Virus record (IMG/VR): IMGVR_UViG_3300013108_000151
Span: 882 to 64,881 of that record
Source of the DNA: a virus
Lineage: Duplodnaviria > Caudoviricetes
DNA: 64,000 nucleotides
Strand: one strand, 5' to 3'
Both the position numbers and the translations under genes were made by a program. Within the stretch, counting starts at the first letter, position 1, and every line of letters starts with the position of its first letter. Under the pieces are notes generated by a model. It saw nothing but the letters and a program-made list of their open reading frames with translations. It made no database searches and was not told the DNA's origin. Of the stretch, positions 12,272 through 16,029 are shown piece after piece.

Positions 12272-12553
12272 CTAAACCCATGCCATGGCTACTAAGAATC
12301 CGAATACGTTAACACATACAAACCATCCAGTTAGTAGCATTACCCATGCCGCCCCTCTTCGAAATGAAGCATAGCATTGAGTAGTTGACCCAATAAAAAA
12401 TAGCGGGTATATTAATCTTAAATCTGGGTCTAATGCTGTTAAGGCCAATGACAAACTAGCCGCAACAGTAAATATAAAACTTACAAGTTCAAACCCAAAT
12501 GCTATTTTGTCACTGGTATATGAGTTAATCCAGAACCTTTTTATATTTTCCAT
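12272..12553 (-). CDS. small multi-pass membrane protein
   Basis: three hydrophobic segments. Confidence 0.65.
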   Translation of the reverse strand: MENIKRFWINSYTSDKIAFGFELVSFIFTVAASLSLALTALDPDLRLIYPLFFIGSTTQCYASFRRGAAWVMLLTGWFVCVNVFGFLVAMAWV

Positions 12554-12813
12554 TAGGCACGACCGACTGTTGCTAGAATAGTTTCTAGCAAGTCTTGGTC
12601 TGTACTAACCTCGCTAAAGTTTCCTTTGTGTGCTGTTCTAATTGCTTTTTTAAGTACAGCAGGTTTGATTTCGAATTCTTCAGCAATGGCTTTAACTGTT
12701 TCGTTTAAGCCAGCATTTAAATCTTCTACTTCCTGCATTACTGTCATGCCCTCATTAATAATTTGGGTTAATTTGAGTTTTTCGTCTTGATTGAATACTC
12801 TATCAGATGTCAT
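12553..12813 (-). CDS. dsDNA-binding protein (T4 DsbA/GapR-like)
   Basis: 86-aa helical protein, VKAIAEEFEIKPAVLKKAI. Confidence 0.6.
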   Translation of the reverse strand: MTSDRVFNQDEKLKLTQIINEGMTVMQEVEDLNAGLNETVKAIAEEFEIKPAVLKKAIRTAHKGNFSEVSTDQDLLETILATVGRA

Positions 12814-12853
12814 TATATTTCTCCTTAAGGTTATTTTAGTTATAACTCATTAC

Positions 12854-12882
12854 ATTATACTACCACTTTCTGTAGAAGTCAA
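12854..12882 (-). promoter_or_regulatory. sigma70-type promoter of polymerase operon
   Basis: TTGACT-17nt-TATAAT. Confidence 0.75.
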
Positions 12883-12902
12883 GTTCTTTTGTAGATAATT
12901 AC

Positions 12903-13775
12903 ATGTATAAATCAAATGGAGAATTATACATGAGTTTAAATATTGATGACTTTGGAAAGTTCAAAATCATACAAGATGATGGAAATTGGGTAGATAAAAA
13001 TAGATTCATTTCTGTTATTGATTATTGGGCAAACTATTTTAATACAATGTCAGTATCAGGAACAGTTATACACAACGCTGGTGATCAACCAGATGTTAAA
13101 TATGATCTTAGTAAAAAACTTATAGCAATTAAAGGCCATACAGGAATTAATACATTGGCTATTGTGTTCGCCGCGGCTAAATGCGGCCATACCCTCTATT
13201 TTGATAATGCTAATAATTTAACTAAAGCATGGTATAACAAAGTTAAGCCTAATGTACTAATGGTCGGCGATGGAGACATGTGTATGGAAGGCGGAAGATA
13301 CACAAGTGGCGAAGGCTGTGTACGTTTGCTGTTTACTAGAAGATTTGAAGGCCTCACTAGCAGGTACATATATCCAAATAAAAAAGTGGCAGGAACCCAT
13401 GTTTTAATTCACCATAAAGATAAAAAAGAAAGAAAAGTTACATTATCTAAATTAAATAAAAGTATTAGCGATTACAAAACGATGCCGGCTGTAGCATACA
13501 TTGAAAATGATACAAAACATCAAGTTGATCAACTAGTAGATACTATTCTTCCTTTAATGCACTCAGGTGCTAAGATTGTATTACATACAAAAATTTCAGG
13601 CTTTGATCAAAGACAAGCACTAAAAGAACACAGACCAGATGTTATATATTGGAGTGAAGATATTCTTAAAATGGTTGAAGATAAAGAAAAGTTTTTAAGT
13701 GAATTAATTCCTGCTCCATTATTCGTCCCACATATAAGAAAAACAAAACAGGTAAAAGCATCTAAAAGTAAGTGA
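12903..13775 (+). CDS. hypothetical protein (weak resemblance to AMP-binding enzyme N-domain)
   Basis: 290-aa lone + strand ORF; LAIVFAAAKCG; no intact adenylation motif. Confidence 0.55.
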   Translation: MYKSNGELYMSLNIDDFGKFKIIQDDGNWVDKNRFISVIDYWANYFNTMSVSGTVIHNAGDQPDVKYDLSKKLIAIKGHTGINTLAIVFAAAKCGHTLYFDNANNLTKAWYNKVKPNVLMVGDGDMCMEGGRYTSGEGCVRLLFTRRFEGLTSRYIYPNKKVAGTHVLIHHKDKKERKVTLSKLNKSISDYKTMPAVAYIENDTKHQVDQLVDTILPLMHSGAKIVLHTKISGFDQRQALKEHRPDVIYWSEDILKMVEDKEKFLSELIPAPLFVPHIRKTKQVKASKSK

Positions 13776-14000
13776 AGTGTGCTACCGTTTCCTTAATTAG
13801 TCCAAAGAATCCTTACATTGTTTGTTTACCCAATCTCGTTCAGGGTAGCACTTTTATGAACGGGTGACGAAAGATAACTAGTATTCCGACGCCTATCAAT
13901 TACTTACTAACACACTCTATTCAAGCCAGGGTGTTGCAACACCCCAAATTAGTAAATCTTTGACCAACTTAACCGATTGGGCTAAATTCGTTGCTCTTCA
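13773..14000 (-). ncRNA. candidate structured non-coding RNA (~228 nt, pseudoknotted)
   Basis: no ORF; several long-range complementary segments; TAAATAC late motif at 14004-14010. Confidence 0.55.
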
Positions 14001-14007
14001 AATGTAT

Positions 14008-14697
14008 TTATACAAGTTGTCCAAAATGGTGCCCTATAAGGCGAACAGTATCAGGACCAAAATGATGAGCGTCTCTGGCATAGTCCCATTCGTCTGTAAC
14101 TATTTTTAAACGTTCAGGAAAGTTGTTATCTAACCAATCAATATCTGCCCAGTTATCTTCTCTAATCATTAGTTTATCAGGTATGAAACTGTATATAAAG
14201 TTTAAACCTTTAGTACACTCTACTATTCTATTAAAGTTGAATAACATACGTTCTTGACATCTTTTATAGTTAGTATCGTCAGCATAAAACTTACCTTCCA
14301 AATTATATCTATGTAAGTAACTAAACATTACTAATACAGTTTTAGGCTTAAACTTATCCACACCCCACTCAACAATATCAGCAATAGTGTCGTTGCCAGC
14401 ACCGTCCATGCCTAAGTTAATAACAGGCTTACCAATGTGTTGCGGCCATGCCTCCCATTCAGGACCACCGTGGTGTTCTGTAAAACTATCGCCAACCGCA
14501 ATTATATCAGCATCGGGATAAGGTCCTGTTTGCCTAAAGCCGTCTTCGTTGTAAGTGTAATCAAAATCCTGCCATATATGATTTGCCCACCATTGAGCAC
14601 CTTTGTGGCATTGTGCTGGACTATCTAAAGGATGTTTGTCTCCTAGTTTAGGAGTATAGGATGTATTCTTACGAGTTGCTAATTCTTCGTTGATCAT
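14008..14697 (-). CDS. SGNH/GDSL-like hydrolase
   Basis: AVGDSFT, NLGMDGAGN, DAHH. Confidence 0.75.
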   Translation of the reverse strand: MINEELATRKNTSYTPKLGDKHPLDSPAQCHKGAQWWANHIWQDFDYTYNEDGFRQTGPYPDADIIAVGDSFTEHHGGPEWEAWPQHIGKPVINLGMDGAGNDTIADIVEWGVDKFKPKTVLVMFSYLHRYNLEGKFYADDTNYKRCQERMLFNFNRIVECTKGLNFIYSFIPDKLMIREDNWADIDWLDNNFPERLKIVTDEWDYARDAHHFGPDTVRLIGHHFGQLV

Positions 14698-14831
14698 ATT
14701 AGTAATTAGTTAGTTAAACTGTATATTACTAATAATGTGATAAGAATGGCTAACACATAAGGCCATTTTGGTTTCGGTTTTTTATATATGGTTATACGTT
14801 CGGTATAAAAGGGCATGAGTTATATGGGTAT

Positions 14832-15254
14832 TTAATTTTCTAGGTCTTTAGATACTTTACTTTCGAAACTGTCGTATCCGCCCCAGTCGTTGTCGTCTTG
14901 ATATTCAACACCCATGTCATCGTCATAATCTGAACTGCTATGAGGATCGAAGTCGTCATCCTTGCCTAGTATTTCATCCATTAACTTATCTTGTATCCAT
15001 TCATATGGATCACCGTCTCTGGCTTTCATAGTACCATAAGGCATATCCCCAGAGTTGCTATACAAGTCAAATAAATCTTGATAGAACTCTGGGTGATCTG
15101 ATAAATCAAAATCTTCTGGGCTTCGTTTAAACAAAGCAACTTCTTTTGGGTGTGCTTGAAGTATGTCGTGTACACTTTGGTACGACTTTTCTTTAATCAT
15201 ATTATCACTTACCATTTTCATGTAAGTGTTCATTTCTTTTACTATGTTACTCAT
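14832..15254 (-). CDS. acidic putative head-internal protein
   Basis: start MSNIVKE; MIKE junction; MPYGTMKARDGDPYEW module. Confidence 0.55.
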   Translation of the reverse strand: MSNIVKEMNTYMKMVSDNMIKEKSYQSVHDILQAHPKEVALFKRSPEDFDLSDHPEFYQDLFDLYSNSGDMPYGTMKARDGDPYEWIQDKLMDEILGKDDDFDPHSSSDYDDDMGVEYQDDNDWGGYDSFESKVSKDLEN

Positions 15255-16029
15255 CAAATATACTCTCTGTCTTAGCATAAGGTTTTTTATTTTTAACTTG
15301 TGCTTTAGTTTTGTTGTTTTGTTCGTCCTTATCCTCAGAGTCCATGCCTACTGTAATGCCATAAGATTCGCCAAGTGCCCCTTTTACTAATTGTGGGTAA
15401 TATTTTTTGTTGATGTTGTGATACATCCATTCACTATCCATAGTGTCTGTGTATCCTTGTTTTCTATTTTTAGCAATAACTAGTTCTACCATTTTAATTT
15501 CTTTAGGTGTGCCAAATGCTTTTGCTAGTAATAAGTTGTTTTCTGAATGATAGTTGTTCTTTTCATTGTCTTTATACAATTGCATTAATGCTTTGCCTTC
15601 AAGGCCTTTAGCATCAAAATCGTCTTCGTTCTTAATAGGTAGTTCAGGGTCAAATGCTTTCCATTCGTCATATGTTAAGTACATATCTGTATCTGGATCG
15701 TAGTACTTTCCTTCTACATTATCATAATAAACTACTTTGCCTGAACGTGTCATAATAGGACCTTCTAGCCCATCGCGTGGTTGATACTTTTCTCTATCTA
15801 TATCTGGAAGTCTAGCCCAACCTTCGTTAGTTTTATGTAAGTAATGGTATAATGAATCTAGTTGCATTAATTCTCTTGGTGATAAATGATCACCTCTTCT
15901 TTTTAATTCATCAAATACAGCAATTTCTCTTTCTAGTTCTTCCCTATTCATCGCACCAGGATGTTTGCCTGATTGTGTCCACGGCGATCTGCTTGGGTCG
16001 ATTTCTTTTATTAGATCTTTTGCTCTCAT
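15247..16029 (-). CDS. modular putative head-internal protein
   Basis: MRAKDLIKE leader; modules separated by TNE, KNE, LGE. Confidence 0.6.
   Translation of the reverse strand: MRAKDLIKEIDPSRSPWTQSGKHPGAMNREELEREIAVFDELKRRGDHLSPRELMQLDSLYHYLHKTNEGWARLPDIDREKYQPRDGLEGPIMTRSGKVVYYDNVEGKYYDPDTDMYLTYDEWKAFDPELPIKNEDDFDAKGLEGKALMQLYKDNEKNNYHSENNLLLAKAFGTPKEIKMVELVIAKNRKQGYTDTMDSEWMYHNINKKYYPQLVKGALGESYGITVGMDSEDKDEQNNKTKAQVKNKKPYAKTESIFDE

Follow-up and report, generated by a model that had tools for sequence, protein, structure and literature searches.

The stretch of DNA analysed here, called the window, comprises 64,000 nucleotides (nt; positions 882 to 64,881 of the IMG/VR record IMGVR_UViG_3300013108_000151) from a 64.9-kb viral fragment whose completeness is estimated at 18%. 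An element of about 235 nt (183-263 nt in relatives), read on the minus strand, fills the entire gap separating two converging open reading frames (ORFs) of 229 amino acids (aa; minus strand) and 290 aa (plus strand). A sequence-only reading of this region had proposed a novel late-expressed structured RNA; a conserved non-coding element of the minus strand does lie there behind a late-type promoter box, and the helices then proposed stood only in part. From the alignment of its variants, we consider that the element is under selection and is non-coding, and that it is most likely the gene for an undescribed structured non-coding late RNA of one clade of marine T4-like giant phages.

The source is an uncultured marine T4-like giant phage. 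The window encodes a DNA polymerase of the T4 family that is less than 50% identical to that of any cultured phage, the closest cultured polymerases being those of the giant phages Phosso, Vibrio 2.275.O and Atu_ph07 (all below 50% identity), and contigs related to the window reach 316 kb.

The late-type promoter box

The element begins at a perfect 8-bp box of the T4 late-promoter type, TATAAATA (Table 1), to which the TAAATAC noticed before at 14004-14010 belongs. The box is invariant in the seven variants that include the 5' end, and the bases preceding it differ. In the variant L130 the box is free-standing, 45 nt past the stop of the upstream gene, and is therefore not kept merely as a stop codon. 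Relatives that possess both neighbour genes without the element are also devoid of an intact box. In the window, TATAAATA is three-fold under-represented (4 copies versus 12.4 expected), all copies are on the minus strand, and one of them lies 6 nt ahead of the ATG of a 214-aa ORF. The 16 TAAATAC sites of the window are all co-directional with the local genes, several being found directly before a Shine-Dalgarno sequence and an ATG. The two plus-strand TAAATAC sites sit in the plus-strand block at 32-39 kb.

The T4 late promoter is an 8-bp TATA box from which the start lies about one helical turn downstream (PMC2988020), and a T4-like late motif has been described in the giant phage CBB (PMC5259590). 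The RNA of the element would start near the G/A of UGAAG, and its late expression is predicted from the promoter sequence. The perfect box likens the element to T4-type late units, whose boxes are read with gp55, gp33 and the sliding clamp; other copies of the box or of its TAAATAC core in the window precede protein genes, whereas this one precedes a conserved non-coding stretch without ORF. In keeping with the sequence-only reading, which saw no ORF in the region, the gap contains no minus-strand ORF of at least 20 aa; the plus-strand ORFs are short and start only with GTG or TTG. In metatranscriptome contigs (4 runs, small shares; region 12500-15300), contigs of relatives were found on both neighbour genes.

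Conservation and distribution

Homologues came from sequence patterns scanned against IMG/VR and metagenome contigs, and from loci retrieved via the polymerase. Eight distinct variants of the element, all in the same position, were obtained from 11 marine records, the window being one of them. Seven of these variants are full-length, i.e. with the 5' end included, and the version in L123 measures 183 nt. A 16-mer scan of IMG/VR gave 39 stretches of which only 4 were real; L085 and L128 were chance matches of the pattern scan and are not homologues. There were no matches to the element in the contigs of 185,579 prokaryote genomes, nor in GenBank phages by blastn with the element or with the 1 kb around it, and a protein search with the neighbour protein recovered 21 relatives. 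With the model R1, which represents the 3' core, the window, 80 polymerase loci and 9 loci with the 290-aa gene yielded no additional copy, and five whole records (one of 316 kb, estimated 91% complete) yielded no second one.

The alignment of the variants reveals invariant blocks, among them stretches of 8-16 nt. The shared blocks are TATAAATA, GAAG, AACGAA, UCG(G/A)AAUACUAGUU, UUCGUCACCCGUUCA, GUGCUACCC, AUUGGGU, UGUAAGG(A/G)UUCUUUG and GUAGCAC..CUUC. The middle domain (27-97 nt) is almost wholly different between variants, and the linkers also vary in length. The identity of the 3' core is 0.76 (28 variant pairs, gaps counted as mismatches) versus 0.62 at the third codon positions of the adjacent 290-aa gene; between the window and L001 these values are 0.94 and 0.64, respectively. 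Conservation ends abruptly at CUUCA. Since gaps of 1, 2, 3 and 4 nt occur between variants within the core, there is no conserved reading frame; the open frame expected of a small-protein gene is broken by the gaps of 1, 2 and 4 nt, and a leader peptide or start-stop ORF was dropped as an explanation because the frames are not conserved.

The element is tail-to-tail with the 290-aa gene in all variants, even where the upstream gene differs: in L130 (377-1128) the 229-aa gene is absent and the element follows a homologue of the 148-aa gene situated at 14832-15278 in the window. Eight other IMG/VR loci (L135-L143; L136 and L137 are the L007 and L008 contigs) contain both neighbour genes without the element, separated by only 14-60 nt and with a mutated box (e.g. 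GCTAAATA). Its absence from close relatives that have both genes makes the element an optional module of one clade. The junctions of these element-less loci (L007 3385-3420, L139, L141) display, across both converging stop codons, a stretch AAATAC...AGCAACGAA that resembles the first ~30 nt of the element. In the element-less relatives, the 229-aa homologue closes with the residues K-Y, which AAATAC encodes there; the window's lineage has a TAA inside TATAAATA, at which the protein ends earlier.

The polymerases of L007, which has no element, and of L003, which has it, are both 89% identical to that of the window. The homologues of the 229-aa and 290-aa proteins are 46% and 54% identical to those of the window in L007 (2726-4322), and 70% and 64% in L003 (2474-4325). 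Because the L007 polymerase reaches 89% yet its neighbour genes only 46% and 54%, the region is regarded as a mosaic cassette, and these values suggest that cassettes have been exchanged beside the polymerase gene.

Pairings within the element

The features of the element and its two neighbours are listed in Table 1. The motifs named in the sequence-only reading all lie where it placed them and are complementary as it quoted. The minus strand folds with -59.5 kcal/mol (z -1.94; 7 of 200 shuffles are as good) and the plus strand of the same stretch with a z of -0.36. The sense z is below the antisense z in 7/7 variants (mean -1.55 versus -0.51), which bears out the earlier choice of the minus strand as the RNA strand. 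Taken as a single sequence against chance, the folding is modest.

Table 1. Positions of the element's features and of the flanking ORFs in the window
Feature	Position	Strand	Remarks
Late-promoter box TATAAATA	14005-14012	-	Perfect 8-bp T4-type box; its TAA is the stop codon of the 229-aa ORF
P1, 5' strand, UGAAG	13996-14000	-	Predicted 5' end of the RNA
P2 hairpin, AAUUUAGCC / loop CAAUC / GGUUAAGUU	13966-13988	-	Hairpin following AACGA
P3, variable domain	13897-13965	-	Long stem, hairpin P3a and weak second hairpin; folds in 7/7 variants
P3a hairpin, GGGUGU/ACACCC	13929-13944	-	Within P3
P4, short stem around large conserved loop UCGGAAUACUAGUU	13866-13897	-	Loop contains palindrome ACUAGU (13877-13882)
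S1, 5' strand, ACCCGUUC	13858-13865	-	Within invariant block UUCGUCACCCGUUCA
S2, 5' strand, GUGCUACC	13844-13851	-	Complementary to GGUAGCAC in 8/8 variants
S1, 3' strand, GAUUGGGU	13828-13835	-	Can instead pair with downstream CUAAUU (P6)
P7 hairpin presenting invariant block UGUAAGGAUUCUUUG (13803-13817)	13803-13824	-	89.3% of cells paired; 3' strand invariant
S2, 3' strand, GGUAGCAC	13779-13786	-	Pairs with GUGCUACC
P1, 3' strand, CUUCA	13773-13777	-	TGA stop of the 290-aa ORF lies in its complement
Upstream neighbour, 229-aa ORF	14008-14697	-	Weak, sub-threshold GDSL-like match
Converging neighbour, 290-aa ORF	12903-13775	+	Beside the element in 8/8 variants

The pairing of the two ends, already noticed from the sequence, is possible in the seven full-length variants, and lineage-specific changes lengthen it to 6 bp in L130, L005 and L123; the end-to-end stem GAAG/CUUC is kept in every variant. 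In P2, 91.8% of 61 cells are paired versus 15-53% when the partners are slid, and two of the nine pairs have changed on both sides. The loop of P2 is not conserved (CAAUC, CAAC, UUA or UUUC). Since the long-range helix CCCAAUC/GAUUGGG of the sequence-only reading uses this loop, it is present in only 4/7 variants: L003 and L123 no longer have it, the best run of L126 comes from another segment, and the GAUUGGG side is fixed, hence no compensation is observed. The helix formerly drawn across it, GUCAAAGAUUUAC with GUAAG..UCUUUGGAC, does not rise above shuffled partners in any of seven variants (fraction as good 0.12-1.00); the local stem of P3, with this helix's 5' strand as one of its sides, is the better explanation.

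The variable domain P3 has a negative sense z in 7/7 variants (mean -1.44) whose sequences are largely unrelated. The pairing of its stem survives three one-sided changes between the window and L001, and its letters are quite different in L130. The hairpin P3a, which the sequence-only reading had recognised, is kept with other letters in L001 and L130 (6-7 bp with a 4-nt loop, despite many substitutions). On the sense strand 3, 4 and 11 of 200 shuffles are as good for the window, L001 and L130, respectively, whereas the antisense hairpin collapses in L001 and L130 (36 and 52 of 200). In these two variants P3a folds only on the minus strand, owing to G-U pairs. The hairpins are one column out of register in the MAFFT alignment, so that separate folds were used instead of a formal pair count.

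The palindrome ACUAGU of the P4 loop is found in all seven variants other than L123 (five scanned, L001 and L130 from the alignment). In L123 the palindrome AUCCGGAU occupies the same offset, which represents two compensated changes; this switch is one independent event, and a palindrome of at least 6 nt occurs in 22-27% of shuffles of the segment. The palindrome hints at a possible pairing between copies of the RNA, of the kissing-loop kind proposed for self-dimerising RNAs of the HIV-1 DIS type. The cofolding of P4 as a homodimer was discarded, as it merely swaps the same helices between strands.

In the 3' core, 95.5% of the 176 cells of S1, S2 and P7 are paired versus 27-41% when the partners are slid, and 15 of the 22 pairs never vary. 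For the two crossing helices taken alone, 98.2% (S1) and 98.4% (S2) of cells are paired over the 8 variants, with 13 of 15 pairs never varying and none changed on both sides. The helix ACCCGUUC/GAUUGGGU is possible in 7/8 variants, in L126 as the 4-bp ACCC/GGGU, and S2 has lost one end pair in L123. The linkers of the core vary in length while the strands of the pseudoknot stay fixed. An H-type pseudoknot in which ACCCGUUC/GAUUGGGU crosses GUGCUACC/GGUAGCAC is thus possible, being compatible with the data without being proven by them, and the nested alternative P6 (GAUUGG with CUAAUU) fits the same data. In the sequence-only reading, GUGCUACC was the loop of a hairpin CGUUCA/UGAACG and was complementary to GGUAGCAC. 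The complementarity is retained throughout, its conservation being uninformative because the pairing is invariant, whereas the hairpin is complete with 6 bp in only 3/8 variants (74% of cells paired; 5 bp in L005, absent in L123, with a shifted UCACG/CGUGA in its place in L003 and L124). Two of the three long-range helices that defined the earlier pseudoknot, CCCAAUC/GAUUGGG and the helix drawn across it, fail on the homologues, although a crossing fold with another first helix may exist.

In the invariant block 13803-13819 of the minus strand, an AUG is found immediately before a UAA and is followed by the Shine-Dalgarno-like UAAGGA; the AUG is replaced by UUG in L124 and the GGA by GGG in L123. 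A CsrA-type sponge was dropped, the main AAGGA being AAGGG in L123, as was a mimic of the RegA operator, which has only AUGUAA in common with the element.

No known RNA family was recognised, in line with the novelty proposed in the sequence-only reading. Rfam 15 (4227 models at gathering score, including those of riboswitches, ribozymes, RNase P, 6S, tmRNA, GOLLD and ROOL) gave in the window only a tRNA located elsewhere, with 0 matches at E<=10 on 13500-14300 and 0 at E<=1 on seven homologue loci. ARAGORN found no tRNA or tmRNA gene in the element and none in the seven homologue loci; its two tRNA genes in the window are both at 39.8-40.0 kb, away from the element.

Interpretation and neighbouring genes

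The dedicated promoter, the paired ends, the strand asymmetry, the hairpins rebuilt with new letters and the variable arm between invariant blocks favour a structured RNA. We attribute a probability of about 0.6 to a stable RNA acting in trans, whose invariant loops would bind a partner. The late transcription machinery of the phage would start at the TATAAATA box in late infection, giving an RNA that begins at about the G/A of UGAAG. Its ends would pair (P1) and close a compact molecule carrying the hairpin P2, the dispensable variable arm P3 and the hairpin P4 with its large conserved loop. The invariant 3' core would adopt the H-type pseudoknot, its internal hairpin displaying UGUAAGGAUUCUUUG, and the invariant unpaired blocks would offer the surface to which a protein or a second nucleic acid binds.

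Several observations weigh against such an RNA. The z-scores of the whole molecule are only -0.8 to -2.8, and the values observed for P2 are reached in 125-199 of 500 shuffles and are thus not significant. In two of seven variants (L130, L126) the antisense of the variable domain folds at least as well as the sense. Covariation among the homologues now collected is weak and without statistical significance, the core being invariant; none of its 22 pairs has changed on both sides. The conservation of CUUCA could come in part from the neighbour's stop codon, which it overlaps. Part of the 5' block may likewise be inherited junction sequence rather than RNA, since its first ~30 nt occur in element-less relatives. 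No terminator-like site that would fix the 3' end follows the element: in 12500-15000, a G+C-rich hairpin directly before a T-run occurs only at 13078-13092, outside 13773-14012. The contigs of the four metatranscriptome runs leave 13816-14285 uncovered, which was given no weight for or against.

In Listeria and Clostridium, antisense RNAs under riboswitch control are known. The element could be the cis-acting leader of a late transcript that runs on from the late promoter through the structured stretch into the antisense of the 290-aa gene, its fold stabilising the antisense or acting as a riboswitch-like sensor of how much antisense is produced, with the gene turned off late. Such a leader would agree with the constant tail-to-tail position, which persists with another upstream gene in L130, with the want of a terminator-like site between the element and the antisense of the 290-aa gene, with the aptamer-like appearance of invariant unpaired blocks around a variable arm and with the existence of T4 late transcripts in either direction (PMC2988020). 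However, the 290-aa gene is present without the element at the eight other loci, and the converging arrangement is found without the aptamer-then-platform order of riboswitch-driven antisense RNAs: neither an expression platform nor a ligand is evident, and the terminator scan gave no terminator-like platform. The sharp end of conservation at CUUCA and the paired 5' and 3' ends also suit a discrete RNA better, and we hold such a leader to be unlikely. It is quite unlikely that the element acts at the DNA level or as a transcription boundary (a protein-binding site, a replication or recombination site, or an insulator or terminator between converging units). The exact placement between two converging stop codons, the exchange of one 6-bp palindrome for another at the same offset in L123 and the never-varying core blocks, which suit sequence-specific recognition, speak for such a site. 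Against it, folding is strand-asymmetric, the G-U pairs would be A-C mismatches on the other strand, the invariant late box points into the element, and a DNA site would not be expected to have a variable arm that goes on folding although its sequences are unrelated. In addition, the element contains no terminator-like hairpin with a T-run on either strand, and palindromes of this length are as frequent in shuffles as given above.

A functionless insertion or mobile-element remnant that spread recently, in which identity would reflect recent transfer instead of selection, appears very improbable. Its restriction to one clade and its absence in relatives with an equal polymerase but divergent flanking genes, i.e. 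in a mosaic region, would fit, as would the resemblance of its first 30 nt to the uninterrupted junction of element-less relatives. Conversely, the divergence of the middle domain and linkers around fixed core blocks indicates a long divergence under selection, a single copy was detected in each record, and no repeats or mobility genes were noticed, no systematic repeat search having been made. A further proposal retains the RNA and makes of it a self-assembling new class, expressed late only, in which the palindromic P4 loops would kiss and so join two or more copies, and the pseudoknotted core would be catalytic or bind a protein or the ribosome; it might enter the capsid together with the cargo proteins whose genes lie just upstream, or counteract host defence. 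We consider this proposal improbable.

To our knowledge, few non-coding RNAs besides tRNAs are known from lytic T4-like phages, and none from uncultured marine giant phages. The prohead (packaging) RNA of phi29 is phage-encoded, structured and of similar size, and its copies interact by loop-loop pairing. It differs from the element by the phage group and by the lack of any sequence or model similarity (Rfam at E<=10 and E<=1), and we know of no requirement for an RNA in T4-like packaging. Like GOLLD and ROOL, the element is conserved, intricately folded and phage-associated, and its loop palindrome could permit self-association; GOLLD, ROOL and OLE are reported to form homo-oligomers (PMC12286853). 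Unlike them, it is far smaller (~0.2 kb) and far more narrowly spread (11 records), and it has no similarity to their Rfam models. With phage H-type pseudoknots such as the T4 gene 32 operator it shares two drawable crossing helices with short variable linkers, but it does not precede a gene, its size is much greater, and covariation is seen in neither helix. From IMG/VR, 8495 candidate structured RNAs have been catalogued (PMC10690425); the DNAVirus_N candidates of this catalogue (29-151 nt, at least three unique IMG/VR regions required) come from the same data source as the element and are objects of the same kind, conserved intergenic folds in uncultured phages. The element may overlap one of them; otherwise no RNA like it was found in the literature on non-coding and late-promoter RNAs of jumbo phages and on metagenomic structured phage RNAs.

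If a late promoter of its own does drive a stable RNA here, late infection would have a new player. The reservations are serious: only 11 records are known, expression is predicted from the promoter, and thousands of similar orphan candidates have been catalogued. The invariant loops are direct handles for finding the partner of the RNA, the close relatives without the element provide natural with/without comparisons, and the small size makes structure probing and cryo-electron microscopy feasible.

The 290-aa protein has no match in Pfam or PHROG. Its AlphaFold model (mean predicted local distance difference test score 79.7) resembles the N-terminal domain of the adenylate-forming ANL enzymes, including acyl-CoA synthetases and the A domains of nonribosomal peptide synthetases, with Foldseek E values down to 9e-10 and query-normalised TM-scores of ~0.5-0.66; the C-terminal subdomain of ANL enzymes is missing. 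The minus-strand ORF 7281-8027 matches only phrog_12062, a PHROG of unknown function (E 1e-34), and its identity as a sliding clamp was not confirmed. Finally, a near-consensus promoter of the sigma-70 type (TTGACT, 17 nt, TATAAT; 11/12 matches) is located at 12854-12882 on the minus strand, upstream of an 86-aa gene. This gene is the first of the run leading to the polymerase gene, and its product matches phrog_639, annotated as "transcriptional regulator".

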